The notes beneath the pieces were generated by a model that saw only the letters and a program-made list of their open reading frames with translations, had not been told where the DNA came from and made no database searches. A stretch of DNA of 62,926 nt, filler included, from Sanchytrium tribonematis (lineage: Eukaryota), in the NCBI GenBank assembly GCA_018985235.1. It is 19 parts of 19 records of this genome, joined end to end, with 100 filler letters (N's around TTAATTAATTAA, not from the genome) between each part and the next. Parts side by side here need not be neighbours in the genome. Positions count along the whole stretch, not along the records: positions 50,033 to 51,594 come from JADGIG010001259.1; 18 more parts are not named here. The stretch is one strand, 5' to 3'. A program made the position numbers and the translations under genes. This document shows positions 2,765 to 61,336 of this stretch, in pieces (within the stretch, counting starts at the first letter, position 1; every line of letters begins with the position of its first letter).

Positions 2765-4568
2765 TTATTTATTGGTAATAAAGGCGTGCTGCAATAATTG
2801 AGTTGCACCTGGTCGACTCTCATAATTGACAATCAAAGATTTATCTAAAAATTGACGTGCCAAATCACTGAGTCCTTCTGGATAGGGAGGAATATTATAG
2901 TTTCCAATTTTAAATATAGCTTCTAGCTGACCAAGTCCAGGCCATGGGTGGTCTCCGGATATCATCTCTATCATAAGGCAAGCCAAGGACCATACATCAC
3001 CTTTTTCCGTATATTTCATTAGTTTTACAACTTCGGGAGCCATCCAATAAACGCTGCCTTTTAAACTCATTCTATTCCCCGCCATAGATAAAGGTTGCTC
3101 TTCGCCTTTTAATTTTGTGCTGATACCAAAATCAGTAATTTTTACACCTCCTTTGTCGTCAACCAAAATATTTCCACTTTTGATATCCCTATGAATAATT
3201 CCTTGGTTGTGAAGATATTCGAGACCCAAAAGACTTTGACCAATAAAGTTTTTCACTAATGGCTCCTCAAAACTTCCATACATTTCAAGCAATCCTTGTA
3301 CCGAGCCACCTAAATTAAAATCGGCTACCTGGAACATATTCTAAAAAGATATTAAGGTAATTTTCCTGAATTTGAGATCCCAAATACCGAACAATGTGGG
3401 GATGATTTAATTGCTTCAGAATTGCAATTTCTTTTTGTAGCGCACGATACATTTTTTTCTTCATTTCAAAATTAGGGCCTTCTTCTGTCGGCATTTCCAC
3501 CATTTTCACAGCTAGAAGCTCACCATTGACCGCATTCATTCCAAGATAAACGGAGCCAAAACTGCCTTTTCCAATTAAGTTGCCTTTGATAAACTTAATT
3601 GGGCCCGCTGATTCTAGGCTTGAGGGCGAGTCTGGTAGGCTCTCTGCTTGATCGTAACTATCTGTATTAATTTTCAGATCCGGTTTTCGATCCGATTTTG
3701 CTCTTCTTGGAGAAGTAGGCTCAGGAGTATTTACAACTGAACTTTGAAGGCTGCTGGGTGAAGAATCCAACATCAAATTTGATACATCAGGAACTTTTGA
3801 AACTCTTCTTAATTCTGCAATTGTATCTCTTGGAAAGTAGTCCTGCAGATGCTGTCCTATGAGAGCTGATGGCGGCCTTGTTCCGAAAAACTTATTCAAT
3901 TTGGTTGACTGCTTAACATCAGCAGATGGCAACTTCCCGTCAAAGTCTTCGCCAAAAAAGTTTTCTAGTTTATGAACTTTTCGTGCTTTGGAGTTTACTG
4001 GAATGTGTCGCTTTCGAAGCACAAGCTTATCTTTGTCGGTTCTTGGATCACGGATAATTGCAAGTAGGTCAGCATCGGAGACTGCTTTACCGGAAGCGTT
4101 AAGTAAGTTGTATTGATTCAAATTAGCTTCTGATGCAGAAAGCCCAAACCGAGACAAAATCTTTTGCATTACATCTTTATAACTCATTTGCTCCGTAACG
4201 CCAACTTGGATTGTCTGGCTATCTTCACCTGTGATTTTCAATATTACTCTATATCTATCTAAAGTTGAGGATGAAGATATATTTTCTTTGCTACTTTGAC
4301 GCAACCGAACCCACGTTCTTTTCAGTTCTTTTACTTTATCCGGATTCAATTGCGGAAGATATCCGTTATATAATCGCCGTATCTCGCTCAAAATTTTAAT
4401 GCGATCTCCGACTTTATGCACTTTCAATTCTTTGAGAAGCGAATGCTCTAGTTTTAATAAACAAAACCCATTTATATGATTCGTGATAAACTGCTCCTGA
4501 TAATGGGACATTTTAATCATATCCAACCAACATAGAACATGATACAAATCCCAATCTTTTACACTCAT
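2765..4568 (-). CDS. STE11: Ste11-like MAPKKK (SAM, Ras-association-like, kinase), 594 aa, 2 exons
   Basis: SAM domain N-terminus, GKGSFG, AVK, HRDIKSGN, DFG, GSVYWMAPE; splicing restores LEYVPGGSV. Confidence 0.92.
3310..3328 (-). other. 19-nt spliceosomal intron (GTAGCCGATTTTAATTTAG)
   Basis: Removal joins the two kinase half-ORFs exactly into EYVPG^GSV. Confidence 0.95.
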
Positions 4569-11612: not shown

Positions 11613-12729
11613 CTATAATTTGTATGATAGCTGATAGATTTTCGGTAAACACTGCGAATGTAATTTCGATGGAAATACTGATATTGGTATCCTGCTCTCT
11701 AAGGTCCGTAAGGTTCTTTTATGAGGTTTGAAAATGGCGACCAAATCGTTGGACTTTTCTTCTTCTAGGCCCAAGCTGAGTTCTGTTGGAATTTCGATTT
11801 TAACCTTCAAAAACCATGCTAACTTAATTTGCTTACTTTCAAATCCTGAAGTTGCTTGGGGCGGAATTTGTACCGTAAATATGTTTTTGTACTGATTCAT
11901 CCCTGTAAAAAAAACTGAATTCCAGGTTTTTTTCCCAAGCCTACCATCAACGTGTGTCTCTTCAGTTTCGACCGAAATTTCAATATTACAGCAAAAATCA
12001 TGCAATGCCTTGATACTACCAATAATTGGCCTTCCCAATATGGATGCGGACTTGAAAATAGTTACTTTAGCAATTTTGGCATCATCATTTGAGATGTAGA
12101 AATAAACTTGATTAATTTCAAATACCAGAATCGCTATCAATGACATTTTGCTCCACTTCATCCAAAAATACGTCCAGATTCATTTGCTCCTGAATCTCAT
12201 CAAAATCTTGGGGGTTTCTCAAAGCATCTATCATCTGAATTAGCTTTCTCGGAGAAGTTGGAGACATTAGACTGTCAATACCTTGAACTGAGAAAGCTAA
12301 AGGTTGAAAATAGAAACCCTTTTCGAAATCAAAATCTTCGCAATTGTTTGAGCCCGCAGGAAAATAAATAAATGGTGCCTGAAGCTGTTTCGACTGTTCA
12401 TTTTCATATACAAAAAAAACAACCATTTTGTAGATTATTTTAAAGCTTGATCCTTGGTTGTAAGTGGGAGGCAGTTTGTGAGGCATAATTACAGATACTT
12501 TGCAATTCGTATAGTCTGCAATATATGGTTTTGATGAATAGAACGTGTGCTCAGAATGATAAAAATAATTGCCCACTCCTTTCATTTTAAAATTTTCAAG
12601 CTTGACGTTTTTAGAGAATATCTCACCAACAACTTGGAATAATACCAATTCAACATCTTGCTCATTAATTATTTTGAATTTGAGCTTTTCTCCAGAAAAA
12701 CACACTTGATTTTCAAAGATCACCGACAT
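11613..12729 (-). CDS. RGP1: Rgp1-like (Ric1-Rgp1 GEF subunit, arrestin-like fold), 365 aa, 2 exons
   Basis: FSGE N-terminus, LPPTY...FKIIYK, ETEE, IPPQATSGFES...LAWFLKV, IPISVFP. Confidence 0.7.
12107..12125 (-). other. 19-nt spliceosomal intron (GTATTTGAAATTAATCAAG)
   Basis: Joins two overlapping ORFs in frame (DSDSV-YFYIS). Confidence 0.9.
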
Positions 12730-13269: not shown

Positions 13270-15295
13270 ATGTCCCAGCAAAATTATTATAATCAAGGCT
13301 ATCAACGGCCAAATCAACAATCACCACAGCAGCCTCAACAGAATGCTCAATCTCCTCAAATGCAAAATAACTCACCCCAAATGGCACCTAATATGTACCA
13401 GCAACATATGATGATGAATCAAATGAGAATGAATCCACAGATGAATCAACAAATGATGTACCAATATATGCGAGGTCAAATGCCCATGCAATCTATACCC
13501 CAAAATATAAATCCTCAAATGATTGCAGCACAAATACAGCAAAATACCCCAACAATCCATCAACCAATGCCACCTTCGAACCCGCCCCCTATGAATCCGC
13601 AAATGAATCAGCAGATGCAACAACAAATGCAGCAACAGAGGTTGTCTGCGCAGTATTCAAATTATCAGCAGTACACAGCTAGAATGCCTCATCAAATTCA
13701 ACAATATCAAATGCCCTATAAAAAATCAACCCCATCATTCAATAGAAATCCCACTACAAGTCAAACCGCCACTCCTCCTAAACCGTTGCAATTAATGTCT
13801 GAAACAAAAAAGTTATTTGTTCCTCCTCCTAAACCCAATAATCCTCCTACCCACATACCGTCTGCTAAACAAGTTGGAATTAAATTACTTCAGCCAATTA
13901 AAAATGACGATTCTGCAATGATTCATAAAAAAACAAAAGATCAAGCATCTAGACTTTTAAAAGATGAGCTGCGTATTCTATTCAGAACAATGGACCGGAA
14001 AAGAGCCTTTTTTCAATTTGTTAAAGAATTTGATGAGACCATTGCTAAGAGAACATCTAATTTACAGCGATATTATGATAATCAGAAACTAGCTGTTGCA
14101 AAGCAGTTTGATAAACATTCCACGATTGGTAAAATTATGGCAATTCACCATGCGCGCTCAAATATTTCCACAATCAAAATTATTAAAGATACCAAAAATA
14201 TTGGATATAAAATTGGTGATGTAGACATTGTCGAAAAAGAGTATTTTCAGAAGAAAAAGAATGCAAGAGTGATGCCTTGCCGCTGGGTTGGTTTACATGA
14301 GAGAGCAAACTACGGCCGTCGTGTGAGGCTTCCAGCTGTTTCTGTATTTGATAAACACAAATTTCCAGCTACATCAAGACTTCAATCTCTGGCTCCAATA
14401 CGTCTTAATATTGATATGGATGGTTTGGCCATAGCTGATACGTTTACTTGGGATGTAAGTAACAATTCAAATACCTTTTCATTCAATGTTACACCCGAAA
14501 TTTTTGCCTATATTTTGGCCGAGGATTTTAAATATCCTCTGCATAAAGATTTTATAGATAAAATTATAGAGCAAATCAGCAATGGACTTGAAGACTATAT
14601 GATATGTCCTTATACTGGGGTATCCTCTTATTTTTCTAAAGATGAAGACGATATCAACGAAGACGAGAAAGTAAAATCAAATGATTTGAGAATTGTAATC
14701 AAAATCAACGTAACAATTGGCTTCGTACGACTCGACGACGAATTTGAGTGGGATATATTTAATCTGGACAACTCACCGGAAGAATTTGCAGAGGTCTTGT
14801 GTAGCGAGCTTCATTTGGGAGGCGAATTCATGTATAACTTTTTAATTTAGAACAGCAATAGCGCATTCGATTCGGGAACAATGCTTCATACATCTTAAGG
14901 CTCTTCATAATATTGGGTACACCTTTGACGGCCGGAATATATCGGATTTCGATCTTGAACTTGCTCAATTTTTCTGTCCTATAATCGAAGAAACAACTTT
15001 ATTTAGAGAATACCCTGCTTTCCCTGACTACCATATCAGCACCTATGAACAGATGCTAGCACTAGAAAAGGAGCGTGAAAGAGAAAATCGATACCAAAAG
15101 CGTAAAACTAGAACTAGAAGAAATGTTGTACCTGATAAAGAACCACCAAAAACGTGGAATTCTACCATACATTCCATGTCATATGGAAAATACCCCGCTT
15201 TTGAGTCCACCTTCAGGCAGATAAACGCAGACCAGGTACAATTCGATAACCCTTTGACTCCAGCGGTAGCTATCGTAGATGATTTAAGCGAATAA
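13270..15295 (+). CDS. SNF5: Snf5/INI1-family SWI/SNF subunit with Q/P/M-rich N-terminus, 668 aa, 2 exons
   Basis: PIRLNID...DTFTWD repeat 1, DEFEWD...SPEEFA repeat 2; splicing restores GEFITAIAHSIREQ and joins ORF 15053-15295. Confidence 0.88.
14832..14850 (+). other. 19-nt spliceosomal intron (GTATAACTTTTTAATTTAG)
   Basis: Restores the conserved GEF.TAIAHSIREQ motif. Confidence 0.95.
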
Positions 15296-26919: not shown

Positions 26920-27318
26920 TGGGTTCTCCGCTTAAGTAAATATTTGCAGATTCAATTTACTAAAAGTGGAGGAAAGGGTGGCCAAAATGTTAATAAAAGA
27001 GATACCAAAGTGATTCTGAAGTTAAACACGAATCAGGCACTTGAAGATGGTGTGCTAACAAAAGAGATTTTTAAACGACTGCCAAATCCGTTTATTATAA
27101 TGAGCCAGAAAGAAAGAACACAACATGACAACCTGAGAGATGCGAAATCAAGACTAGAAGAGCTTTTCAAGATTGCTGAGCTTGAATCAGTCCCTAAGAT
27201 TACCAAGCCTGAGACAACGAAAAGAATCATGCGGCTGCAAACGAAATTTAAATTACAGAAAAGAGCTGATAAACTGTACACCAAAATGAAGAAGAATTCT
27301 AGAAAAGTTGACTTTTAA
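26911..27318 (+). CDS. ICT1/ArfB-type peptidyl-tRNA hydrolase (mitochondrial ribosome rescue)
   Basis: FTKSGGKGGQNVNK..TKV, SQKERTQHDN, basic C-terminal tail. Confidence 0.88.
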   Translation: MNHWVLRLSKYLQIQFTKSGGKGGQNVNKRDTKVILKLNTNQALEDGVLTKEIFKRLPNPFIIMSQKERTQHDNLRDAKSRLEELFKIAELESVPKITKPETTKRIMRLQTKFKLQKRADKLYTKMKKNSRKVDF

Positions 27319-27630: not shown

Positions 27631-28849
27631 TAAAGGGTTTATTTATTGGACTTCAAAGGACACTTATAAGCACATTAAAGAGGATGATATCGATCCATAT
27701 TTGACAGATAGAGACATTTTCTTTTTATTGGATTCAAGAGATTTATACAATACATTAGGTCCTTGTATAATTTGCTCATCACCAAGATCAGATATTGCGA
27801 CTCAATTCCGTAAAACTGCGTTAAAACTTTTTATGCCAGTATGGGAATGGCATGAGATTCAGTCTCTTCACCAGGAGGTTTATTTAGACAAAATCACTGT
27901 CCGTCAGCTTCATGCAAGATTTCATTTAATTGGAGGTGTACCTCGGTATTTGTTTGAAAATCTACAAGATACGGCTGCTACTATTTTGCATAATGCGCTC
28001 AAAGCGAGTGAAGCTTCCAATCTTCAAAGACTACGTGAATACAAAGGCAAAGACGGCAAAGAACCATCTCATCAATTGATTCACATTAACAGCTCATTCA
28101 ACACCGCACCACCCTGGGGTCAATATTCGTTATCATACGCTTCTGATTTTGTATCCACCATGGTCGCTTCCAAGTATCAAAAATTAAGAAAAGATATGGT
28201 TGTTCAATGGCTAGACGAGACATCTGATATCGGAAAATCAGGTGGCTTACGTGGTAATTTATTTGAGACTCTCGGACATTTACATTTAAAAAAGGGAAAT
28301 TTTGCGTGTAAAAGTCTTGAAAGTGATGGTGTCCAACAAATGATCCAAATTTCATGTAAAAGTGTAGAAATAGTGGGTCAGCGAGACATTTCTCAATCAG
28401 TCTGGGTGCCAAACATTTATTACAAGCCATTATCTAAATTCTTTGATTGCATTGATTCTTGGACAATCATTGATGGAGAGTTGTGGGCATTCCAGTTTAC
28501 GGTGTCTTGTGATCACGATATATCAAATGCCTTGTACTGGTGCTTTTTGATTTGGAATTTGAAGCATCATGTGACTGTTGTGTATGATGACAACAAATTT
28601 AAAAAATATTCAAAAATGGATATCAAATTATCTGAAAAGAGTCCTTATGATAAAATAACAAAAGCTCCAGAAGGTTATGACGTACAGCAACATGTTTTGC
28701 TATTGGATTGTGGTGGAAAATTCAGTATTGATGATTATTGGGAAATACAAAAGAAAGAATTAAAGCATGCTTTGGGAATGTTTGCAGATAGTGATGGCGA
28801 CAATGTACAAAATGAAACTGAAGCATTTAAAAGTGTCATTTCCACTTGA
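27631..28849 (+). CDS. Crinkler/RHS-like NTPase + restriction-endonuclease-fold effector (5' truncated)
   Basis: FMPVW...EI, GGVPRYLF, RGNLFE..GH, YYKP....DCIDSW, FQFTVS..H. Confidence 0.8.
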
Positions 28850-32575: not shown

Positions 32576-33224
32576 TCAAGTCAAAAACAAAGTTGCAAAT
32601 ATTATTGGAATCAGCAAAAATGCAAAGATCTTAGCGATGGTCACAATGAATAGACCTTGCTCGACAGTGCCAGAGTCAAGCTCCTGGATTTCTTGATCTA
32701 AATCAACCTTATCAAATTTTATCGCAATCCTTTCTGGATACTGTTGCAAATATAATGAAAATTCGCGATTCCAAGACCAAGATTCTTTGGCTCTAATTTT
32801 TTTCTCTCTGTCTGAAGTCTGAACTGTGCCAGTTCCCATTTCATTTCTATATAAATTCAAATTACGAGCACATATACGAAACGAGTCCTATTAGCATAGA
32901 CTGAATTGACCATAGAGGATTCCAACTTTCTTTATGAAATCCAGTCATGCTCATGCAGATTTTATCGCCTGGTTTAAATCTGCCGCTGGGTGTATAAATT
33001 TTGAAATGAGGAGGACTAAATGGGTAATTTCTCTCAAATAGAATGACTCCAAAGTACTCACCTCCGAAATATGGAGTTTCTTTTGGTCCATTAACAATAA
33101 AATACCATGTCAAAAGGTTATTTTCAGCAGGTTTGACTATAACATTTTCAATAGGCGACTTTTGAATAGCTAAATATTCTTTTTGGAGACGTACCTGTGC
33201 AGGTTTAGGTATTTTGTTACTCAT
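32576..33224 (-). CDS. UBC6: tail-anchored ER ubiquitin-conjugating enzyme Ubc6/UBE2J, 209 aa, 2 exons
   Basis: RLQKEY, TPSGRF, ICMSMTGFH.ESWNP; splicing gives SYMCSNEMGTG and adds the C-terminal TM helix. Confidence 0.92.
32847..32865 (-). other. 19-nt spliceosomal intron (GTAATTTGAATTTATATAG)
   Basis: Joins the E2 core to the tail ORF in frame. Confidence 0.93.
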
Positions 33225-33897: not shown

Positions 33898-34030
33898 GAT
33901 GGAGTTTCAGATGAAAAGATTTCTTGCGTGCGATTGTATGTTATTTTCTATAATTTTAATGCAGTGATTGTTTTAAAACTCTGACGAAATGTAAGCTTTA
34001 AGAAAATCAAGCCTGACAGCAATCTCCTTG

Positions 34031-37000
34031 ATGCAACATCCCCAAACTATTCAGTTGCAAGAAAGCCCATTGGTTGTAATAGACTCTATCAATTCCGGAA
34101 AGAAAGATTTCGATCTTAAAAGGTACATCGAAATGGTCAGAATCATTATATCCCAATCCCCTCAATTTTTTCCACAATTTGCCGCGGCTATTCAAAATCA
34201 TCCAAATTATGAGTTATATTCCTTTGTTTTGAGTGTACCAGATGAAAAGAAGGCAATTTTTAAAGAAACAATGGTAAAATGGACTGAAAGCAGTGATGTA
34301 CTTTTTTGCATAAAAGCAATACAATTTCTCGCATCCTTGAGCAAAAATGAAGATATTCCCGACCTTTTTCCCCTTTATAAACGTCTATTGCCTAAATATA
34401 CGTATTTGTTGATCTCTACGATTAGAACTACAATAACTAATGGCAAAATCTGTAATCATTATCTTGATGTTGTAACCCACATTGACCCAGATTATATCTA
34501 CATGTTAGTTGAGCCAATTAAGGAGAGGAGACCTGAGATCAATAATGAGGAATTTTATGCCATGTTCAAATACATGATAAAAAAAATCGCTCAGTATAAA
34601 GGACCTTTAAATTTCCTTTATCCAAATCTTAAGCAATTTTTGGTACTTTTCGAACGTGTTACTGACCAGAAAATTGCACAACAAGTAATGATTTTTTTAA
34701 CTACAAAACTACATGCATTCCTAAGCACTTTTTTGAAATATGAATTCGTTTTGACTCTGGATCAACTAAAAGAACTAGAAAAGAAAAAAATAGATCTTGG
34801 CTGTATTAAGGATCCTTTATTAGGCACTAATCTTTATGTTTGGGATGAAAAGCAAGATTTCAAGGATACATTAGTCCTTTTTAAACTTGTTATTTACGGT
34901 ATTAGAATGGCAATTGTAAAACTTTTGCCTCTATTAAATAGGCCCTCAGATATACCTGTTGAAACATATGAATGGATTACAACCGCAGTGGAACTGATTT
35001 TCAAATTAAGTAGTGGTATTTCATTCGATTCAAGATTTGGTGTTGATCTTGATCGACCTGAAAAGTGGTTCGAACAAATACAAGAAACATTTTTAGACCG
35101 TAGCCCACACATTTTACCTGAATGTTTAACCCAGGATTACAAAACATACTCTACTAGTTTTGAAATTGAAATTGTAGAATCAATTACGCGATGCTTAGAG
35201 GGAATCCCTGTTGGAATGCTATCTACTATTCTGCCACAACCAGAACTCATGATTCAAAGCTGCAAATTTCACTGCTTAAGGTTAGGATTAATTCAATCTA
35301 TGTTTAATTCTCAAATTTTATCACCCGCTGTTTCCACTCATTATTTTAAATATTTTCAAAAATGCCTTAATTATTTACATAAGCTTGACGATCTAGACAT
35401 GAAAATACATATTCGTGTTGCAAAATTGACATTTATTAACGTCACTCTTTACCCAGAAGGATTAAACTCTGTAATTCCAGAAATTCCGAATTTTATTATG
35501 AATTCATTAGATTACTATGTCAAAACGGGCTCTTATGTGTATTTGATGATATTTAAACATGTTTTCAGAAGCATTGGAAACCAGCCAAAAGAGAGTATTT
35601 ATCAATTACTTGAGCCATGCGTCCCAGACTTGTTAGAAGTCTTGATGAACAGTCTACATATCCCAAGATATTCTTTTCTATGCACAGAAATTCTTTTAAC
35701 TCTCCCCGCAAAACTAACTTTGATGTCAGAGTATCTGTCTAGCTTGGTTGCTGCCATATCTGTTGGACTTGATGCACCATTTCTTAAGATTCAATCGTTT
35801 TATGACGAAAAAGTTTGCAATTTGGCGCTTCAATCTGTCAAAAGTTTAAACACTTGTGTGGAAAATTTGTCTGAAGACTCTTTGAGAAGTATGATTGAAC
35901 CATATTTAGAAAGACTTGTCATACAGCTTAATCGAATAGTGAATTGCAGATTTACTGAAATTGTCGGGGACGAGCTTCCAATATTTGCCACAAAAGTTCT
36001 TTGCAAGCTTAAATCCAGATGCGAGAGTTTTTACAACTGTCAATTTGGCTCTTGTGTTTTGCTTCCTTCAAATTCTAAATTACTAGAACTACGTACTGAG
36101 AATTATCGAGTGCACGTAGACTACGTGCCTTGTTTTGAGGCGGCAATTACCATGTGCAAAGACTTTTTGATTTCTCACGATTATGCAATGATTGAAAAAG
36201 CAAGTCCTGATATCAATTTAGCGATCGATGTGGCATTCGAATTTCTAAAAGCTCCATTAAATGACAATTCAGTACTATTATGTTCCGTTTGGAAATTGGT
36301 TTTCTATTCAATTCATTTCGGATCCACACGAGCCTTACCTGAATATTCCATGACTGATTTTGCAAATAATTTTGCTGAGACCTTGCACATTTGCACCGAT
36401 AATACAGTTGAATATCTACAAAAATCGAATGGTTTAATTCCGCTGTCTTTGGTACTAGCTGAAAATCTTGGAAATTACGACTTCACAACAACTTATAATG
36501 CTTTGCATCTTTTAAGACACGCAATCACGTTTAAAGAGTTTATGGATGCAGTCGACAAGTGTCATTTTTCAAAGCAAATAATTTTTTCATTTGAAAAATT
36601 TGGCATTTCTAATCAGATAAATAAGGAATATGAGTTTCTGCTTAATTTTCTAAACGTTAAGACTAAAGAATTCATCAACTTTGCAGTGAAGCGGGCATTC
36701 TGTCGAAGATACATTTACATTGATTCTTATATTAACTTTCTAGGTGCTGTTCAAATTGATCCAAAAGACTGCGATTTTTTGCCAAAGTTGCTAGAAATAC
36801 CTATCAACGCATTGGAATCTTCTTTTCAAGTAGCCTTTATTAAAAATGTTTCATGGTATCTCACTCAATCATATCATATTAGTGTCGAGCGGTTGGAAAA
36901 AATTCTAGCCGATGCTATTCCCAATTTGAAACAAGAGCGAAATAATCGTGCAACACCACTAAAGCTGGCATTTTTGCATCTTCTTCTTCCTCTTTCAAGA

Positions 37001-40000
37001 ATTGAATCATTAAAAGCATTGCTAGTCACAAAGAATATGTTGAACGTGATCTTTTCAATGATATTTAGTCCAGACAAACGAGCCTCAAATCTTTGCTTCA
37101 AGATACTGCAAGGTTTGCGAACTTATATCATGTCGAACGAGTTACTTAAAAATGATATTTCCGAACACCTCAACTTATACTTGAAGAGCAACAAAAACAT
37201 GGCTGGTGCCGCTATCTCTCCAGCTCCTGGTCAGTTATCAGGACTGGCTCGCCTTGGAGAGCTTTTTCCTGTTAGTCCAAATGTCTCAAACGCCATTGAC
37301 TCTTACTTTGAAGCGCATTTCGCTAGTACAGCAATGGAGTCGGAAGGACTTAAAGCATTGATTCAGTCAAGCATTCGTCAAAAAAATGAATTAACAAACC
37401 CCTCAGCGACAATCGAGAAGCTATTCGAATTTTATTGCATAATTTCATCTAGAACTCAAAAAAAATACTTGGATGCGATCGAATCTATTTGCATGCTTTT
37501 TGGAGAATTCAAAGAAATAGTTGCAGATAAAATTATTAATTACATGGATGTCTCACATGAAAAGTTAGATCTCATGCTGTTTATTGTAAAGACTGGTAAA
37601 TTGAAGGCAATTATGGAGGTCGCCTGTTCGAAAATTTCTCAAATTGGGGCAATGGTGAGTGGTGGGTCAGTAGACTTTATAAGTCTGAAAATGTATAGTT
37701 GTACCAAATTTATCGCCTGCTTAGCCCAATTAGGACCAATTGAAAACACCCAGGTTATAATGTTTCATCTGAAATGCATGGGAGCTCAATTGACAGCTCT
37801 TAAGGGAACACTTCAATCTGCAACTACAAACTTTTTGGTTTTCTATTCTCAAGTTTATCATCTATATTTTTCGTTCCAAGAGGGAGTGATTAAAAAAATA
37901 TTTCCCCGATTCAGCGAGCACACTTCCACATTTTTTCTAGATCCAGCAGCTGATTATACGTACTACGTCGATCAAGTGCAAAGGATGTGCCGCAAAATGT
38001 ATTATCAAGAAAAAGAAATTAACCAAATGGCGTCTACTTTTTTGAAAGCATTGGCAACAGTCAAGGAAACTTTCAGACTTGAAGTATATTTTGATTTGAT
38101 ACTTGAACCAATATTAAGAGACAAAAATTTATTGTCAGAAGCTATATTGGAATGTTGCGCTGCAATTATTTGGAAGATAGACCCAAACAAGGCAGCCGAC
38201 GAATTGTTGGAATGTGCTATTAAATTCACAAAACTTATCGTTCAAAATCAAGACATTAAAAACATTGAACCCCGATATTTAGATCCACTAATAGCATTTG
38301 TATCAAAATCAGTAGCTGCCTCGGGTTTGAAACCATTAGTTTTAAAATCAGAAATTTTACATGTTGGCAGTATCTGCACTAATTTATTTGACATTCCAGT
38401 CGATTTTTTCGACACCATTTTTAAAGAATTGCTTCAATCTTTATATTCTTTCAAAAATATCGATCTTTCAATTGTGACATTCGGACATCTTGTGGAATAT
38501 ATTTCCAAAAGGCTTAAAGAAGAAACTCCAAAGTATGTAACCTATTTGGTTGATGCCTTGAATGACCAGTGCCAACACGAAACTATTGTGAGTATAATGA
38601 AGCTATGCGTCACATTTCCTGATCTGTTTTTGCCTCATTTGAAAATTTTAGAACCTGCATTTAGAAACCATATCGGAAAAATAAGCCAGATGTCTAATAT
38701 GGAGATCAAAACAATAATGTCAGAATTTTTGGTTTTCATGTTGGATAGAATCAATGAGAAAGAGTCTATGGAAGAATTCGCAAATGCAGCTTTAAGATTC
38801 GTATTCATGGTAATGTTGCAGCCTAGTCCAATTCGATTTCAATGGTCCGAATTAATTAAAAATTCAATAATTAAAAATTTAAAACGGGTCGGCTCACCAG
38901 TTATTAAGTATGAATCTTACATACTGTTTATCAAATCCGACTTTGTTAATTCTCAAACTACTGCTACTAGATCTGGCGGTATCATCAGTTTAAAAAATTA
39001 CCTCGAGGTGATAATGGTTGATGTTCAATTACGAAGCAAAAGCTGGACACAACAAACGTACTTTTCACTAATTTAGTCATGCAAATATTTGTATGCTAGT
39101 TGAAACTTGTCTTAGACAAAAGTTTGTAATTAACGATGAAATTCATGCACTGCTTGATAAAGTTTTGGAAAGCTCGAGACATTTTAGTGCAAATGATGAA
39201 GAAGCTGGTGACACTTTGATCAAAAATATTTGTCAGATCGCTTCTGAAATATCTGTAGATGATAGCAAAAAAAATCTGTTTGTGGTCATTTGTGATGTTT
39301 TATTAAAATATCGAAAAGAAGCTTTGGATGGGTTTTCTGAAAATTTGGTTTGTCATTTCGAGAGATCATTACTGTTCCCTTTTGATGACGCAATGTTTTT
39401 CTTGACAAAGCTTATTTTTAAGATGAGCTCCTTGCTTGTCAACTACAGAGAAAGAATTATTTATGGATTGACAACGTTGATACAGGCAAGAAAATCTGAG
39501 AGTGACACAATACGACTTTTTAGGCTTATCAAAGATAAGACATTCAGACTTGCAGATGCAATGCCAAACTTGCAAGAGAAAGGGATTTTAATCAAATCAT
39601 TTATGTCGCAATTAAACGGACAATTTGACGAGGAATATTTTAGATTTATTTTGGAGATGTATACAACTGAAAATTTTAAACAAACTGAACTGACCAGTAT
39701 TTTACAGCCATGTTTTCTCAGAGCTTTTTCGGCTCCTCTTTCCATTCGAATGAAATTTATTGATTTGTATGAAAAGAATATTAGAAGAAACTCTTTCGCT
39801 AGACTTTACTACCTCATAGGTCGACAATCATGGTCAGGTATTACTGAAGATGTATTTAGCGCGTTTTCAATCTACTTGATTTTCATCAATCAGGTTGCGG
39901 TATCATACGAAAGTGTAAAATTAGAAGATCCCAAAAAGATTCTACTGTTAATCCAAGCTGACGGTAAGCGCTTATTTGAAGACGTATTCCCTCAACTTTG

Positions 40001-42842
40001 GTCTCAATTTACTTCAGTTCAAAGGGTTGAATTATCCAAAGCATTTGTATCTATGTTTGGTACTCTTTCTGAGAATCGAACTCTGGAATACGCTGACATG
40101 TCCTCCGTATTATCGACGCTTGTTAAGCTGAAACCACATGTAAAACTTCCACCATTTTTATTGGCTAATTTAAAATCATTTGACACCTTATTTTATTTGC
40201 AAGAAATGTTCGAGAATGGAGATTTTATCACTGATAGGAAAACTAAATTTTTATTTGCGAATGCATTTGGACAATTGCTAAGGAAAAATAAGGATTACGA
40301 TCTTCTTCTTGGATTAGATCAACAGCAATCTTTAACTAGAGGGGCATTACAAGTCATTGAGCTGTTACAGAAAAGCGACTATGAAAATGCACAAATTAGA
40401 ATAGAGGAATGTCAATCAAACTTGAAGAAAAACATAAATTTGTCCCCACATGAACTCCACTTGTACAAAGATGAATGGTTATACTGTGCTAAAGAATTGC
40501 AGCAGTGGGAGGTCATTGAGGAAGTCAGTCAGCACGAGGGCTGGGATCATTTGCTTTTTGAATCACAATTTCACACTTTAGATTTTGCTTCGGATGAAAA
40601 AGCAAAATTAAAAATCCCTATTGACCTGGATTTTAAAGAAAAAGCATTTCTGTGTTGTCACTATTTAGTCGAAAGCTTCGAAAATGAGCTATATCTTTCA
40701 AAATTTAAATCCTTGATTGTAGAAGTTAAAGGTATGTTGTTAACAGCTTTCACTGTAGAAAATGCCAGGCTTTACGTAGAATTACTCGAGTTTCAAAATG
40801 TGCTCAGTACTTTATCCAAAATCACAAACGTAACTACAGCAGTTGAAATGGCTTCACAATTAAATGTGACGTGCTCTTACTTTCGACAAATATTGCCAAA
40901 TGACTACGAAGATGTCTCACATTGGACTGAATTAATAACAATAAGAAAATATATTTTTAATATTATTAATAGGAAATATAGTATTTATCTACCCAATATG
41001 CAGTCAATGGTTGGAAATAATGGTCAGAATGCTCTGGCGTTTAAAGGGTTTCATGAACTTGCGTGGACTTTCAATCGATTAGCAAAGGTATACAGAAAAA
41101 GAGACCTTCACGAGCATTGTATTAATACATTGAATTTGGTCTACAGCTTGCCAAACATCGAATTACAGGAAGCTTTTCTTAAGCTAAAGGAACAAGCAAA
41201 ATTGTATTTAAAAGATCCCGATTTAGCTGGAAATGGTCTGGAATTAATTAAAACTACCAATACACATTATTTTAGCACAGCAAATAAGGCAGAATTTCTC
41301 GTTTTTAAGGGCAGATATCTAGAGGTGTGTAATAGAGAACCAGAGGCAGCGGAAGCGTTTATGAGTGCGACAACTACAGATCCCGACTTTCCGAAAGGAT
41401 GGTCTTATTGGGCCCGCTTTCATTTGAAACAAGATTTGACCAGCGACATTCACCTTAAAAATGCCATAATATGCTTCGTGAACGCCTTAATTTGCAAGGA
41501 GGAGAAAATAAGATTCAAGGACGCCACTTTACTGCTTTGGTTGTTAACCACTAATATCGAGAATCCAATTTTGAAGGAATGCATGAGTAATGCCGATAAA
41601 ATGGGCATTCATCAGTTTATGCATCATATTCCGGAGCTACTTCATATTTACAAATCCAAGTATTTGAAGGATTTTGCGCATCAACTACTTATCAAACTAT
41701 TTAAAGCACGTCCTGCTGTTGTGTTTCCATATTTGATACTTAAGGAGAAAGACAGAGAGTTACAGGCGCTTCTTAGTCACATTTTGTCTGATCAGCCTAT
41801 AATCTTCCAGTCTTTAAGTTCTATTTATCAGCATTTTATCAACATAAACTCTGAATGTATGAAGCAAACTGGTCCATTTTTTAAGTCGGAACAAATAGAA
41901 TTAAATATGCCATCGTTACTCAGAAATTTCGAATACGGGTCATTTGCAGAAGTGACAGTTCCTTGTTTTTACACAAAACACAGCATTTATACACAAGCAC
42001 CAATTATTGTAAATTTTAAAAATTTGAGAAGTGTTCATAACAAACAAATTTTGACTCTAAACGCCAGTAACGGTCTTGATTACCAATACGAAATCGAAGA
42101 TACAAAGTGTGAATACCCTTATTTTAGAACTAGCCAAGGCTATTGGAAGGTTTGCGATTATTTCACAAAAAAATCATTAGACTTCCTGAAGAGAAAGTGT
42201 CCTCTTCCTACATTTGAAAGAGAATATTTAAAGCAGCATGTGGTGATGTCACTTGCGCCCGAAAATTTATATCTGTCGGAATTCGCTTCATCTTTTGAAG
42301 GTTACACAAAAGAATCCGAATTTCATACCTTGGTAGAGAAATATAAAACTTCGATTAAGTTTGGGTTATCGACCCAATTGAATTCAAGAAAGTATTGGGA
42401 ATTTCGAAAAAAATTTACATATTCCTACTCAATTTTAAACGCTAGTATCTTTGCTCTTAATTTGAACCCTCTTTCGCTTGAGGATTTCACCATGTCTTTG
42501 GTAGATGGCAAATGTTTTTCAAAGGAAAACTTATTTTCACTTCAAAGATCAACCGAGACTGAGTTAATATTTAGATTGACACCTGCTATTCAAGAATTTA
42601 TTTCTGTTGTAGGAATACAAGGCTATTTCAAGCAGATGATAATAATTTTTGCTAAAGCTATGGTTGGAAATCATGAATTTCTGCAACTTTTTCTACCTGT
42701 TTCTAATCCTGTCGAGGAATCTCGACTAATAGACAGCAAATTTATCACACTCAGCCGACACAAAATTGACGATATTCTCAGTATCAGTACTAATCCGCGA
42801 ACGTTGTACCAGCTTGAAAAAGAGTTCTATTCATTTTTTTAG
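34031..42842 (+). CDS. TRA1: Tra1/TRRAP pseudo-PIKK scaffold of SAGA/NuA4, 2930 aa, 2 exons
   Basis: VFRSIG, EILLTLPA, CAKELQQWE, FKGFHELAW..NR, YSLPNIELQEAFLKLKEQAK, FRLTP, FATC-like end. Confidence 0.9.
39058..39076 (+). other. 19-nt spliceosomal intron (GTACTTTTCACTAATTTAG)
   Basis: Joins the 1682-aa and 1249-aa ORFs in frame; contains a canonical CTAAT branch motif. Confidence 0.95.
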
Positions 42843-45562: not shown

Positions 45563-47086
45563 TTATTCGCATTTATTAAATACTATTATAGATTCTACAT
45601 GATTTGTTTGCGGAAATAAATCAACTGGCTGGATTGTTAAAATTGTATATTTAGGCCTATCAACCCTAAAATCTTTGTCGAAATTCGAAACATAATCGAA
45701 CCAAATGCCATTCATAATGTACCTGACGTCTCTGACTTGAGCGTATAAACCACATGCAATATAAATGATTGTCTTAGGACCAAAATCCATTAATTGATCT
45801 AAGTAAGCTTTTGTTGACCCTTTCCTTGGCGGGTCCATGATAACAGTAGTGTCTTCAGGTTTTGCTGTTATTTTGCTAAATATAGCTTCAGCAGATCCTT
45901 CGATAAAAGTACAATTCGTAATATTATTATCAACCGCATTTTGAATTGCATTTTCAATAAAATTTCGTGCCACTTCTATGCCATACACATGCTCAACTTT
46001 CTGAGCACAGCACAGCGCAAATAAACCAACACCGCAATAAGTATCAAGAAGTATTTTAGTATTGATCTGACTCTTAACAAAATTTACAAAATCTGGCAAA
46101 ATAACAGAATTGTTTTGGAAAAATGAATTAGAGGTGAGTGAAAACTGTATCTCATTGACATTAATCGTAATTTCGGATTTGGGATCGGATATAACGTATG
46201 ACATTTCGTCGTAACTATTGATATCCCATGAATCTTTCGTTCCTTCTCGCAATAATAAAGTGGCACCCATTTTGGGTTTCTCGATTTTGGCTTTAACCTC
46301 AAGTCTTAATCTAGAATATGTACTATTCATACTTTCACTTCCTAGGGAGCATTCTTCAACATCCAATACTTTTCTACTATCAAAGTAATTAAATCCAATC
46401 GGAAGGTCTGCCATTTCAAGATCTCTCGGCTTATCATAGTGTGGTGTCAATTTTGTACGATATCGATACTCTCTAGGAGATCGTATAGGGCTGTTGACAG
46501 GTGTATCAATGTCGAGCCTACTAAATGCATCTTTGACTTGACACCATTTCAGACGAAGCTGTTCATCGTACGGTATGTGTTGAAGCTGACAACCTGCACA
46601 TTTTCCAAAGTATTGGCAGGGCGGAGAAACTCGTAAAGGTGCCGGTTTCACGACTTCGGTTATTTTGGCTTTAAAATACATCTGGCAATCTCTGTAAATA
46701 TTAACTTTGACAATGTCTCCCAAGGCCACGAAAGGCACTAGAACTGCTTGCTCAAAATGTATTCCCACACCAGAATTACCCGAAGGCGAAATTTCTAAAA
46801 TTTTGATTTCTGTATCAATATTAACTGGTTCGCCAAAGGGATCTAATTGCTCATCTATTTCTAGACCATTTCTGTTGTAAAAATCAGACAAAAACATGAA
46901 TGTGAACGGAATTGACGGATCGTAATTCAATCTTTTGTTTCTTACTCTTTTTTGATTTTTCATTTTTGGAAAAGAAAATCCATCAACAAGCGGATCACTC
47001 TCATTTTCAGTAAAATCTGGATGGTTTAATGGCATTGGCCGAACAGGTTTAAGCATTTGTACACAATTTTTGACTATTTTTGACAT
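45563..47086 (-). CDS. TRM2: tRNA (uracil-5)-methyltransferase
   Basis: CQYFGKCAGCQLQ, YRTKLTPH, SFFQNN, DTYCGVGLF, DPPRKG, DLFPQTNHVE. Confidence 0.93.
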   Translation of the reverse strand: MSKIVKNCVQMLKPVRPMPLNHPDFTENESDPLVDGFSFPKMKNQKRVRNKRLNYDPSIPFTFMFLSDFYNRNGLEIDEQLDPFGEPVNIDTEIKILEISPSGNSGVGIHFEQAVLVPFVALGDIVKVNIYRDCQMYFKAKITEVVKPAPLRVSPPCQYFGKCAGCQLQHIPYDEQLRLKWCQVKDAFSRLDIDTPVNSPIRSPREYRYRTKLTPHYDKPRDLEMADLPIGFNYFDSRKVLDVEECSLGSESMNSTYSRLRLEVKAKIEKPKMGATLLLREGTKDSWDINSYDEMSYVISDPKSEITINVNEIQFSLTSNSFFQNNSVILPDFVNFVKSQINTKILLDTYCGVGLFALCCAQKVEHVYGIEVARNFIENAIQNAVDNNITNCTFIEGSAEAIFSKITAKPEDTTVIMDPPRKGSTKAYLDQLMDFGPKTIIYIACGLYAQVRDVRYIMNGIWFDYVSNFDKDFRVDRPKYTILTIQPVDLFPQTNHVESIIVFNKCE

Positions 47087-50032: not shown

Positions 50033-50697
50033 AGCCGTAGATATTAATGATAGACTTTTAGCGTCCTATCAGTTCAAGAGAAAGGATAGGGAGTGGTTGA
50101 AATCTTTTTTTTATTACATTTTGAATTTGATAGTTGTGAATAGCTACTTGTTATACAAACTAGACGCAGAAGAACATGGTCATCAGCCAATGTCTCACTT
50201 AAAGTTTAGACGACAATTATCAAATCAATTAATGCTGTTTGGTCGTGAACAAATGGAAACAATTGTACAACAGTCTTTGAACGGAAAAGTAGATATCACA
50301 AGAAAATTAAATCAACCATTAACTGCAGCATTAGAGAATTGGAAGCAGTTTATGATCATACGTTCAGATGTACCTCAAAAAGACAAAAAAGGGGTAATAG
50401 ACACATACAGAATGCCTGCACATTTAAAGGAAAGGTGATTTTTATTAATTTAGTGGCAATCACTGGATGGTGGAAATCCAAGGGATCCTCAAAGACTCTG
50501 CTAGACCAAGATGCATGTACAAAGACTGCTGGAATAAAGTAAACACAGCTTGTAATAAATGCCACGTTGCTTTGTGCGGAAAGCACTTTAATGTGTGGCA
50601 TTGGGAATACAAATGCTGCCACTACATTCCAAGAAATAAATTATAAATTTTATCTGGTCGTGACGACCTTCAAGGTCATTTAGAGATTTTTAAAGGG
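50033..50697 (+). mobile_element. piggyBac-like DNA transposon, 3' part: transposase C-terminus to TAA 50646 and putative right end ...TAAAGGG
   Basis: AVDINDRLLASY..KRK...W...F...LNL..VNSYLLY; after splicing, Cys-rich RC...C......C..C.V.LC..HF..WH domain; end AGGG followed by TAAA. Confidence 0.88.
50435..50453 (+). other. 19-nt spliceosomal intron in the transposase (GTGATTTTTATTAATTTAG)
   Basis: Removes TGA and brings the piggyBac cysteine-rich domain into frame. Confidence 0.9.
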
Positions 50698-50716
50698 TAA
50701 AACAAAAATTTGCCAT

Positions 50717-51594
50717 TTATTTGACCCTGATTTCAGAAACCTGTAACCGATTGGATGAGGTATTAAACCCGAACTGATTATGGGGTAACTTGATTTTAAT
50801 AGACATATTCAAGTAATTCTCATAACATTTTCTCAATGTAAAAAGAAGGGAGATTGGCCGGTATTCAGTCATTCCTGATGGTTGTGGTACTTTAGGAATT
50901 GGAATCAAAGTGGATGAGCCCATTTGGGTTGGAATAAAACCAGTGTCAAACATTATTTGAAATACTTTTAGTAAAATTTGAAGTAATGATAAAGGAGCAT
51001 AAATGAGACTTTCATTTGGTATATCTCGTACTCCATATGCCTTTCTCTTTGGTAATTTATTTATCATTTGTTTAAATTGTTCGTAATCAATCACATGTCT
51101 TTCTCCCGTGTGAAACTCAAATCTTTCATTTATTTGTTCTAGTGTGATATTTTCATGCTGCAACATTGGGCTGCAAATATTCCTATTATATTGATTAATA
51201 TTGTTGACATCTAGGTTATAATTAATAAATACTCATGATATTCTGCAATATTAGTCATTTTGGCGTCCCGAACTATCTGTGTGTATAAATTATAATCAAT
51301 AATATGTAAATCCTGTGTGTTTAAAGAATTTGGAAAATTAATAGAATTATGACGTTTTGGTGTAAATTTACCAATGCTTTCATTCAGACTTACTTTAATA
51401 CATGAATGAATTGATTTGACTGCATTGGACAGATCATTCATGCAGCTAATGGAATTAACTTGATTTTCAATATTCCTTTCAATTAATAAATTCTCTAATT
51501 TAGAAGTGTATTCTGCTCTTTTTTCTTGCATTTCTATTTTGTTAACCCTAAATTGACTGCCACGAAATACTTCAGATGTGGATTTTACCAGTTT
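50717..51594 (-). pseudogene. degenerate LINE ORF2 fragment (frameshifted, RT truncated)
   Basis: KAYGVRDIPNE, IPIPK, EYRPISLL, NQFGF; frameshift near 51225; RT stops after QFGF. Confidence 0.8.
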
Positions 51595-51694: not shown

Positions 51695-52627
51695 ACAAAA
51701 AAGTGGTATTATTATGGCATGGGTTTTTAATGTGTTCTGAAGTATGGGTGTGTCATCCTGACTCAATTGCAAAGTATTTGAATGAATTGGGATATGATGT
51801 ATGGCTTGCAAATACCCGTGGTAACAAATATTCTAAAAAACATGTTTCACTTGATATTGATTCTGAAGCATTTTGGAATTTCTCAATTGATGAAGTAGCT
51901 CAATTTGATGTACCTGCTGTGACGGATTATATTCTACAGTATACCAAACAATCCAAATTGAGTTATATTGGATTTTCACAGGGTACTTCCCAATTTTTTG
52001 CTGCTTTGAGCATTAATCAGGATTTACAAAATAAAATTGACAAATTTATAGCACTGGCTGCTGTAATTCGTCCCCTTCCTTTGCGTAAAACCATTCCTGC
52101 TTCATTAATCCAAAGTTCTCCCAGTTTACTCTATTTATTATTTGGTAGAAAAGCCATATTTGCAAGTGCTGCTTATTGGGGAAACACCCTTAGTCCATCT
52201 TTATTCAGATCTATGCTTGATACGGCCATGAATATCTTATTTGGATGGAATTTGAGTCTGATGGATAAAGAACAAAAAGTAGTTTATTTTCACGTAGTTG
52301 ACACTTTATAGACATTTATATAGCACCAGTTCAGTCAAAGCAGTCGTACACTGGTTCCAAATCATTGAAAAAGAAGAATTGGGCATGTTTATCAACAAAC
52401 CCGATCAATTCAGTAAGCAACCCCGATATCCCATTGAATTAATCAAAACCCCTGTTTATATCGCATTAGGTACCCGTGATACATTATCAGATAAGCCATA
52501 TTTAGAATCTAAATTACAAAATTGTGAAATATTAGAATTACCCAATTATGAACATTTGGATGTAATTTGGAGTGCTACTGTCAAACAAGATGTATTTCCA
52601 TTTTTAAAAAGAATTTTGAATAAATAA
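51695..52627 (+). CDS. Tgl1-like sterol esterase/acid lipase (5' truncated), 2 exons visible
   Basis: LWHGF, GYDVWLANTRGNKYS, GFSQG, HLYSTSSVKAVVHWFQ, YEHLD. Confidence 0.92.
52279..52297 (+). other. 19-nt spliceosomal intron (GTAGTTTATTTTCACGTAG)
   Basis: Gives EQK^LTLYRHLYSTS in frame. Confidence 0.9.
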
Positions 52628-53848: not shown

Positions 53849-54904
53849 TTATTCATTATTGTTTTGTTGGAGCATATCTTGGAAATTGAAATCCGATGGA
53901 AATTGATTTTGGAATTCATTTTGATCTAGTGGTTTTTGTGCTTCTGGATGTAATCTGATATATTCAGCAACTTCTTTGGCTTCTTGTTCTTTAATTTCAT
54001 CTTCTGTTGGTGGTATTCTATTAAATTTGGGTCTATTTGGAACTGGGAATCTTTCATAATATTGAACACCAGTCCTTTCTCTGCCTCTGGATCCATCTAA
54101 ATAGGGTTGACATTCAAATGTATCACCATATTCTTCCCAATTAGATAATGCGATGCTTTCATCTGCTGTAAATGGAGCGTCTTTATGAAATCGATCTGTA
54201 AAATCATTTTGTTCTATTTTAATTTCATTATAAACTGATTCTGTGTAAGCCACTTTAACACGTGGTACCATCATCATTTTAGAGTATCCATTTTTAATAA
54301 AATCCATACATAATGTTTGGCATTCACTCGCAGCACATTCTCCATCTTGAAATTCTGTAATTTTTGAAGCATTTCGATTATTGCCCCGTCTAAATTGAAT
54401 GCCATTATAAAATGGAATTGGATTCATACTCACCATTCCATTCCATATGCAGCCTACTTGAACGGGTAATTGATTTAATCCTCTTTGTCTGGATTTATAA
54501 TCAAAAAAGAAATTATCATTTTGATACATTTTAAAGTGTTTGCCACTTAGATCTAAAGAAACCCATACATCATATATAGTAGGGAATTTACGACCCCATG
54601 TTACTTTGATATAATCTATTCCACCTACTAAATCGGCGTGATTTAAATTTCTTTGATATTCTAATTCTAATAAATCATTTGCACACATAAATACATCATT
54701 TATAAACAGAATAGAGTCGTATTGGTTTCTATGTAGTTGTTTCATGGCCATATTGCGTATATTTGTCAAATAATCTATTCGATTCATTTGATTTGTTAAT
54801 TTTAATGGACTAGTAGAAATATGGTGTTTGACACCATGTAGACTCAATAAATCAGTCAATTCTTCTACTTTTCTTTTGTTTGCTTGAACTATAAGTAGTA
54901 TCAA
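53849..54904 (-). CDS. CAP59/Cmt1-like GT69 alpha-1,3-mannosyltransferase (5' truncated)
   Basis: RIDYL..IRN, FINDVF.C, YDVWV, PVQV.CIWNG, GECAASEC. Confidence 0.88.
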   Translation of the reverse strand: MILLIVQANKRKVEELTDLLSLHGVKHHISTSPLKLTNQMNRIDYLTNIRNMAMKQLHRNQYDSILFINDVFMCANDLLELEYQRNLNHADLVGGIDYIKVTWGRKFPTIYDVWVSLDLSGKHFKMYQNDNFFFDYKSRQRGLNQLPVQVGCIWNGMVSMNPIPFYNGIQFRRGNNRNASKITEFQDGECAASECQTLCMDFIKNGYSKMMMVPRVKVAYTESVYNEIKIEQNDFTDRFHKDAPFTADESIALSNWEEYGDTFECQPYLDGSRGRERTGVQYYERFPVPNRPKFNRIPPTEDEIKEQEAKEVAEYIRLHPEAQKPLDQNEFQNQFPSDFNFQDMLQQNNNE

Positions 54905-60598: not shown

Positions 60599-61336
60599 TT
60601 ATTGACTTTTATCACTCTTCTCACTATCCCTTCTAAACCATCGTTGTTGATGTGTATATGTCCCAATATCCCTCGTTGTTGGCTTTGGTTTATTAATTAA
60701 TTTCAAATAATCATATCCTTTCTCAGCATCAAAATTCTTAATGGTCAAAGATAAACCAGGAATCAAATTAATACCGTATAATAAAATGACAGTAATCACG
60801 AATGACCACGCAAATGTGACTAGACATGAAATGAATTGCCAAACAATCAACATTTCCCCTTCAATCGCACCTGAGTAAATGATTTTCGTGCCATCTAAAT
60901 CAGACCAATACCGTTGCGCGAATAAACCAGTTTGTAAATTACCCATTATTCCACCTATACCGTGAATCGCAAATACATCCAACTACATGAATTTAAATAA
61001 CGTGATCATCAATTTTTAATTTATCTTTTAAATGTACTGCGCCATAACAAACTGATGTGCCAATAATACCCATTAATAAGGCGTATGGGGGTCCTACAAA
61101 TCCTGCTGCAGGTGTAATAATGACGAGACCCGTCACCACGCCACTACAAAATGCAATTGCAGAATATTTCTTGGTTTTTAAATATACCCAAAATACCCAT
61201 GTTAATGAAGATGCAGCAGCACAGATATTTGTAGTCACAATAGCAGCTGCTGCTCTACCATTTGCAGCACTAGCAGATCCACCATTAAAGCCATTCCATC
61301 CAAACCATAATAATAAAGTACCCAATAACACATTTG
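60599..61336 (-). CDS. ammonium transporter (Amt/Mep), 3' part, 2 exons visible
   Basis: LWFGWNGFNGGS, GLVIITPAAG, IDDH^LDVFAIHGIGG. Confidence 0.95.
60983..61001 (-). other. 19-nt spliceosomal intron (GTTATTTAAATTCATGTAG)
   Basis: Restores the DD.LDVF..HG motif. Confidence 0.93.

Follow-up and report, generated by a model that had tools for sequence, protein, structure and literature searches.

Sanchytrids are alga-parasitic zoosporic fungi, and introns in DNA transposases are known, for example in the P element, among others. In a contig of Sanchytrium tribonematis (JADGIG010001259.1, positions 50033–51594 of the 62,926-nt stretch analysed here, hereafter the window) a piggyBac transposase frame breaks off at a stop codon, and a cysteine-rich peptide is encoded immediately downstream of it. 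The question is what separates the two parts: an intron removed as a matter of course, an intron retained by selection for regulation, an intron of a domesticated host gene, or simply the lesions of a dead copy.

The window is composed of contigs, mostly of 1.5–1.6 kb, with N spacers between them; it is gene-dense, has about 33% G+C and uses the standard code. The piggyBac gene opens at the first base of its contig, and hence the contig contains neither the left end of the element nor the gene's 5' part, covering only the 3' third of the element. No second copy of the element was found inside the window. The window may itself derive from X1, the sole DNA run containing the stretch, and so the X1 contigs are not an independent sample; the path of the window across the element has an intact frame, and may be a mosaic of several copies formed in the assembly.

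The reading that we favour, and consider fairly probable, is that the contig carries the 3' end of a piggyBac transposon, whose frame is split by an old, routinely spliced intron of the host 19-nt type, common to most members of the family. The features are listed in Table 1.

Table 1. Features of the piggyBac contig and 19-nt introns of host genes in the window (coordinates along the window; a dot denotes no strand)
Feature	Position	Strand	Remarks
Transposase exon 1, 3' part	50034..50434	+	End of the DDE core (region of the third catalytic Asp), helical DNA-binding/dimerisation part, linker; cut at the contig start
Predicted phase-2 GT-AG spliceosomal intron	50435..50453	+	19 nt, 84% A+T
Exon 2, cysteine-rich domain (CRD) zinc finger of the piggyBat/PiggyMac type (predicted)	50454..50646	+	
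Two overlapping perfect 13-bp palindromes, candidate sites of a CRD dimer	50656..50677	.	6-1-6 hairpins 50656-50668 and 50665-50677
Proposed right tip, AAAGGG then TAAA	50692..50701	+	CCCTTT read inward from 50697
Stretch beyond the proposed tip, common to sister contigs	50702..50751	.	Sharp junction 50750-50751
Non-LTR (LINE-like) reverse transcriptase fragment, a neighbour and not a part of the piggyBac	50750..51232	-	RVT_1, E = 0.073, under the curated cut-off
Host 19-nt intron, SAM-domain protein kinase gene	3310..3328	-	Pkinase profile 80, then 85
Host 19-nt intron, SNF5-family gene	14832..14850	+	Profile ends at 160, resumes at 162
Host 19-nt intron, UBC6-type ubiquitin-conjugating gene	32847..32865	-	After removal, aligns with no gap at the junction to P0007, an uninterrupted relative of 204 aa
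Host 19-nt intron, ammonium transporter gene	60983..61001	-	Profile 303, then 305
Further host 19-nt GT-AG case	12107..12125	-	Blind scan
Further host 19-nt GT-AG case	39058..39076	+	Blind scan
Further host 19-nt GT-AG case	52279..52297	+	Blind scan

The split frame

The product of exon 1 matches the last 39 positions of the Pfam profile DDE_Tnp_1_7 (311–349 of 349, E = 1.8e-5) and is 45% identical to the full-length relative P0009, in agreement with the first-pass annotation of the locus, which had called it a piggyBac transposase. Of the catalytic DDD triad the contig covers only the region of the third Asp; in P0009, which matches both T. ni piggyBac (PDB 6x67) and piggyBat (PDB 9c0f), all three motifs align to 6x67.

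The same annotation had reported that the unspliced frame stops at 50438 and that a cysteine-rich tail appears after the removal of 50435–50453, and both observations were reproduced. If the segment is retained, in-frame stops are encountered at 50436–50438 (TGA) and 50451–50453; if it is removed, a frame of 197 codons is open, with the cysteine-rich peptide at its end. Only two of the ten GT/GC..AG candidates of 13–59 nt starting at 50381–50450 reach exon 2. The second of these, a GC-AG segment of 40 nt, was rejected, as it deletes conserved residues. Deleting 1, 4, 7 or 10 nt near the junction never opens the frame, and after any single 1-nt deletion or 2-nt insertion in 50301–50500 at least one stop is always left. 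Thus, as the frame is opened by the removal of the 19-nt GT-AG segment and not by a 1-nt indel, the split is better read as an intron than as a simple indel.

One could still suppose that there is no intron, and that we observe a dead copy with a frameshift and a stop, flanked by GT and AG by chance; the sister copies indeed carry many frameshifts. However, at least two lesions imitating the host 19-nt signal would be needed, and five diverged relatives (see below) would have to be hit at the same site. A ribosome shifting frame once would run into a stop in either frame (50436–50438 and 50446–50448). We regard this explanation as very improbable.

The segment itself resembles the host introns described in the next section. 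Its last nine bases are the same as in two of them and differ by one base from a third, and the likely branch A is at position 14, six bases from the 3' end. When GT-N15-AG 19-mers were scored with a matrix built on eight host candidates, the segment was among the top two of 292 non-training ones. At position +3 it has G, which is absent from all eight host candidates. A simple 1-nt indel in a sister copy, an observation that would have spoken for a lesion, was looked for: in the sole X1 contig across the intron both the 19 nt and the GT..AG are preserved, and there is no indel, with the reservation that contigs drop variants. In this contig a change at +4 abolishes the first stop, and the frameshift stays. 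Judging by the sequence, 50435–50453 is most likely a real U2-type intron of the host 19-nt class.

Host introns of 19 nt

In a blind scan for GT..AG segments joining two long frames, a loose run yielded 11 candidates of 19 nt, the next highest length having 8; in a stricter run there were 10 candidates of 19 nt and at most three at every other length in the range of 13–60 nt. The ten candidates of the stricter run comprise the transposase intron, two probably false ones and seven host cases. Of the two probably false ones, the candidate at 42824–42842 is probably no intron and, as seen by eye, overlaps the apparent natural end of the upstream gene (it sat among the eight training introns of the host matrix), and the candidate at 13653–13671 lies inside an open frame.

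Four of the seven host introns were verified by homology (Table 1). In addition, both exons of a Rgp1-like gene match their family, and in the case of a lipase this holds for the first exon only. The seven introns have T at position 12 and mostly A at position 14 and T at positions 15 and 17. The term "host-style", applied to the length of the transposase intron in the first-pass annotation, is hence well founded, given the peak in the blind scan and the homology-verified cases. Apparently, the host splices 19-nt introns; of the two novelties described here this one is the more solid, and it is maybe the more important finding in the window.

The protein of the UBC6-type gene has six matches among relatives (Amoeboradix gromovi, 75%; Sanchytrium tribonematis, 67%; next, 55%). 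One of the relatives, P0003, stops at the site of the window's intron; two Amoeboradix proteins, P0004 and P0005, depart from the frame at an earlier point, in a way that, as judged by eye, an intron of about 20 nt would explain; and P0002, P0007 and P0008 are uninterrupted. Since the intron positions vary among the relatives, introns seem to turn over quickly in this lineage.

For the public sanchytrid protein sets, genes were called on genomic contigs with no intron model (PMC8371127, in part), and the sanchytrid proteins P0003, P0005 and P0011 appear to be cut at such introns; protein sets truncated in this way bear on the claims of gene loss in the phylum. A search of mainly open-access literature yielded nothing on the intron size in sanchytrids, and in the available parts of PMC8371127 and PMC10459994 introns appear only in the title of a reference.

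Two other A+T-rich GT..AG candidates were seen in the blind scan, one of 22 nt at 27235–27256 (minus strand), which may be a real longer intron, and one of 17 nt at 46071–46087 (minus strand). A gene of about 2,935 codons at 33995–42830 (plus strand), Tra1/TRRAP-like by eye, contains a single 19-nt intron (39058–39076).

The domain encoded by exon 2

The predicted zinc ligands, counted from 50455, are H3, C20, C25, C33, C36, C41, H44 and H49, that is, in the order of His, Cys-x4-Cys, Cys-x2-Cys, Cys, His, His, and the first His is two codons past the splice site. H3, C20, C33 and C36 are invariant in the alignment of eight sequences. Exon 2 is 38% identical to the CRD of the relative P0013, and among 928 frames compared with a CRD profile it was the top one (E = 0.004). 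The structural model of exon 2 has pLDDT 78; piggyBat was ranked first by Foldseek (E = 1.2) and second by VIA-align (Z = 4.4), both being weak matches, and the fold searches with this model gave no significant match. A search in Pfam gave no match to either exon 2 or P0013.

The CRD of piggyBat has one Cys3His and one Cys2His2 site (PMC11707139, in part), and the CRD of the PiggyMac type is characterised by an upstream arrangement of His (PMC8086355, in part). By analogy, the zinc sites of exon 2 are predicted to be formed by the piggyBat ligand set. Hence, the cysteine-rich domain proposed in the first-pass annotation is present, and is wholly encoded by exon 2, but is of the piggyBat/PiggyMac type rather than the T. 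ni type. Binding of DNA was shown for the piggyBat CRD and was undetected for the PiggyMac CRD (PMC11707139 and PMC8086355, both in part). As the entire domain is in exon 2, it can be a part of the protein only if the intron is spliced.

The right end of the element and the sister contigs

The two palindromes were found where they had initially been placed; counted from the proposed tip, they lie at bp 21–33 and 30–42. Two 6-1-6 hairpins in the 105-nt trailer were obtained in 1.9% of 5000 shuffles, this being a post hoc estimate in a window with 169 six-arm hairpins. The positions are comparable with those of the CRD palindromes in piggyBac (bp 17–33; PMC7351741) and piggyBat (bp 19–30; PMC11707139, in part).

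The sequence AAAGGGT[A/T]AA has a single occurrence in the window, at 50692–50701. Its part at 50692–50697 fits the motif of piggyBac terminal inverted repeats (TIR), C[C/A/T][C/A/T][T/G/A][T/A/G][T/G/A] (PMC5381638, in part), with approximately 0.03 fits expected by chance in 105 nt, and the tip motif and the palindromes are located 50 bases past the stop codon. Thus AAAGGG and TAAA are indeed at the terminus initially proposed, though the flank is TAAA and not the TTAA typical of piggyBac ends. It is one change away from TTAA, and the X1 contigs list no difference there; rare non-TTAA targets are known, and the available part of PMC5381638 does not have TAAA among them. We consider it plausible that 50697 is the right end of the element. 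Alternative ends near 50760–50766 were rejected as a misfit to the TIR motif.

One of the X1 contigs extends upstream of 50034 with transposase-like letters. The X1 records are colinear past the proposed tip to 50734 and 50751, that is, for 37–54 bases, and two records then diverge. As this segment is common to the contigs, they resemble a single old insertion, present as duplicates or haplotypes, rather than fresh jumps. The sister contigs are decayed: all six listed indels break the frame, and nine of the 11 listed coding substitutions are nonsynonymous, affecting, in particular, two zinc cysteines and creating one stop. One contig differs at 50656, the first base of the first palindrome. 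In one record the first catalytic motif, recognised by its letters, is fused to 50278; this is likely an internally deleted, non-autonomous derivative.

These observations bear on the possibility that the locus is a domesticated, piggyBac-derived host gene, similar to PGBD5, PiggyMac and Tpb2, which would explain the conservation of the intron. In the available part of PMC5381638, domesticated genes are the only ones for which introns within the transposase are mentioned, and in the window's copy the frames are open and none of the eight predicted ligands is missing. On the other hand, a host gene would hardly be accompanied by decayed sister contigs and by a record resembling an internally deleted derivative, or followed so closely by a tip motif and palindromes, and one named species has several diverged members of the family (P0011 and P0013). 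We therefore find domestication quite improbable, and return to the reading of the locus as a transposon end.

The intron in related transposases

A HMMER search with exon 1 yielded 318 matches, of which the best 150 were used. The window and its best relatives form one clade (support 98/96; nine of 21 tree rows). The nearest named transposases are from Sanchytrium, and, among the matches listed, P0011 and P0013 are both named Sanchytrium tribonematis and are diverged. Two rows of the family, P0016 and P0165, end earlier and so are uninformative; six distinct relatives reach the end of the linker.

Five of these six, P0009, P0010, P0011, P0012 and P0015 (35–48% identical, among the matches listed), end at most six codons from the break in the window. 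In the register set by the conserved Pro-x-x-Leu, the seventh residue is Glu, Gln, Glu, Arg and Glu, respectively, and each of these codons can end in G; the next residue is Tyr, Phe or a stop, and each of these codons begins with T. For three of the five the T-starting codon is the stop itself and so necessarily fits, and the G-ending test by itself has a chance probability of about 0.14. P0009 reads five residues further, and its stop is the codon formed by the closing TAG of the window's intron. Thus, the stop pattern suggests the same intron phase in all five relatives, and in P0009 the same 19 nt, as far as can be derived from proteins. As a control, 68 other piggyBac matches with no CRD end 25–237 residues past a fixed motif, compared to 95–101 residues past the same motif in five of the six rows of the family; the motif is present in 115 non-family matches (both control numbers being among the matches listed).

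The sixth relative, P0013, has no break and aligns with the spliced product without gaps at Leu, His and Glu-Ile-Gln. When segments of 13–46 nt were deleted, the best alignment scores with P0013 were 265–278, the intron having 273, so that 19 nt was not singled out; as the score is flat over the deletion lengths, the case for the intron rests on the splice signals and the register. P0013 is nested among the other rows with weak support (89/83), and a tree uniting all rows that stop at the intron, to the exclusion of P0013, was not rejected (AU test, p = 0.142). Loss of the intron in P0013 is slightly favoured over a gain.

Apparently, the intron is old and family-wide, and not a lesion of the window's copy. 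Of the two origins that had been suggested at first, long residence in this genome is in line with the position common to elements of 35–48% identity, and a recent origin de novo is ruled out for this copy. The suggestion that related elements should be checked for the intron found an answer in two parts, as the protein ends of five relatives fit it and P0013 lacks it. When metagenome and viral contigs were searched for the DNA of relatives, none of the 21 and 122 pattern matches was confirmed, and the 12 loci found with a degenerate pattern had no tblastn match. Longer proteins were sought by a word search with exon 1, and none of the 241 candidates passed.

The intron would have arisen in the host lineage, or shrunk together with it, long ago. 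As a DNA transposon skips the RNA stage, an intron in its length-variable linker can persist in the same way as a host intron.

Splicing and retention

Under the favoured reading, the element would be transcribed and the host spliceosome would remove the intron using the branch A close to its 3' end, thereby joining the catalytic core to the piggyBat-type zinc finger. By comparison with piggyBat and piggyBac, the full-length transposase would bind the tip-proximal palindromes via a CRD dimer and cut at the CCCTTT end. Unspliced messages would either produce a protein lacking the CRD, which is likely inactive, or be degraded. Since any retained intron of 3n+1 nt shifts the frame, truncation is the default outcome and not by itself a demonstration of control.

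A more elaborate possibility is that the intron is kept by selection as a switch of the P-element kind, retention yielding a CRD-less dominant-negative repressor with the catalytic and dimerisation parts. The intron is located two codons before the first zinc ligand, and so its retention removes the entire CRD and nothing else; yet this position was noticed post hoc, and it is in the linker that the protein varies in length and tolerates change. The loss of this domain would matter, as the CRD of T. ni piggyBac is essential for transposition (PMC5861402, in part), and retention of intron 3 of the P element produces a repressor (PMC7776569, in part); on the other hand, every retained 19-nt intron shifts the frame, and with their premature stop the retained messages may be subject to degradation. 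The intron is apparently the sole break in the full-length P0009, which is open for 622 aa up to this point, and it is kept in six of seven lineages, whereas the positions of the UBC6 introns differ among relatives; however, P0013 has no intron. Finally, the nonconsensus G at +3 might speak for the switch, but P0009 and P0010 do not share it, as their residues imply GTA and GTT, similar to the host introns. All in all, such selection seems to us unlikely.

The same holds, to the same degree, for the more specific proposal that sanchytrid piggyBacs independently evolved an off switch, where regulated retention would produce a catalytically intact, end-blind transposase poisoning the dimer; we treat it as a doubtful possibility. 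If true, control of a DNA transposase by splicing would be known from a second case, independent of the first.

Comparison with known systems

Similarly to piggyBat of Myotis lucifugus (PDB 9c0f; PMC11707139, in part), the element has the DDE_Tnp_1_7 core and a predicted ligand set of Cys3His and Cys2His2. The palindromes have similar locations (bp 19–30 in piggyBat, bp 21–33 here) and unrelated sequences; the linker is longer here, and no intron is mentioned in the available part of PMC11707139. The catalytic Asp motifs of T. ni piggyBac (PDB 6x67) align with P0009, and the element resembles it in the proposed CCC-type tip and in the close position of the subterminal palindrome (PMC7351741). 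It differs in that T. ni piggyBac has a single uninterrupted open reading frame (PMC5381638, in part), a CRD of a non-homologous fold and the TTAA flank.

Intron 3 of the Drosophila P element (PMC7776569, in part) is also the last intron of a transposase, and its retention also truncates the protein. In that case both the regulation and the repressor have been shown, and the truncated protein keeps the DNA-binding domain and loses catalysis, whereas here retention is predicted to keep catalysis and to lose the end-binding finger. PGBD5, PiggyMac and Tpb2 (PMC5381638, in part) resemble the locus in having spliceosomal introns within a piggyBac frame and, for the domain, the CRD of the PiggyMac type; unlike these fixed host genes, we likely have here a transposon end with decayed copies.

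Introns of 18–21 nt have been described in the chlorarachniophyte nucleomorph, of 16–17 nt in Mikrocytos and of 15–16 nt in heterotrich ciliates (PMC10245619, in part), and the median length in myxozoans is 22 nt (PMC13644364, in part); ultrashort intron classes are also described in microsporidia (PMC10245619 and PMC13644364, in part). The features common to these systems and the window are a narrow length class, GT..AG boundaries, A+T richness and an A near the 3' end; the window differs in that the introns come from a zoosporic fungal lineage and are sparse (about seven host cases). If the host indeed splices them, the sanchytrid spliceosome would work at the lower limit of intron size, as it does in nucleomorphs, mikrocytids and heterotrich ciliates, and few known fungal introns would be as short as these 19 nt.

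Fungi are known to carry piggyBacs (PMC5751038, in part). Our search of mainly open-access literature found no paper on introns in mobile piggyBac transposases, and the available parts of PMC9942856 and bioRxiv 2021.12.14.471607 contain no statement on introns in mobile piggyBacs. On the literature searched, a mobile-type piggyBac family with a conserved in-frame transposase intron would be new. Annotation would report such elements as lacking the CRD, although the domain is one tiny intron away. As one member has no intron, the family may also serve as a dated marker of how 19-nt introns arise, persist and are lost.

Neighbouring features

The LINE-like fragment downstream of the element is fused to the piggyBac flank at the sharp junction 50750–50751. 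A second LINE-like reverse transcriptase piece, recognised by eye, is located at 17442–19041 (minus strand) and is open across its whole contig. The open frame at 27631–28849 (plus strand) by eye resembles chytrid and oomycete Crinkler-type proteins in their C-terminal part. A CAP59-type mannosyltransferase is encoded at 53852–54904 (minus strand; Pfam, E = 7.7e-36).
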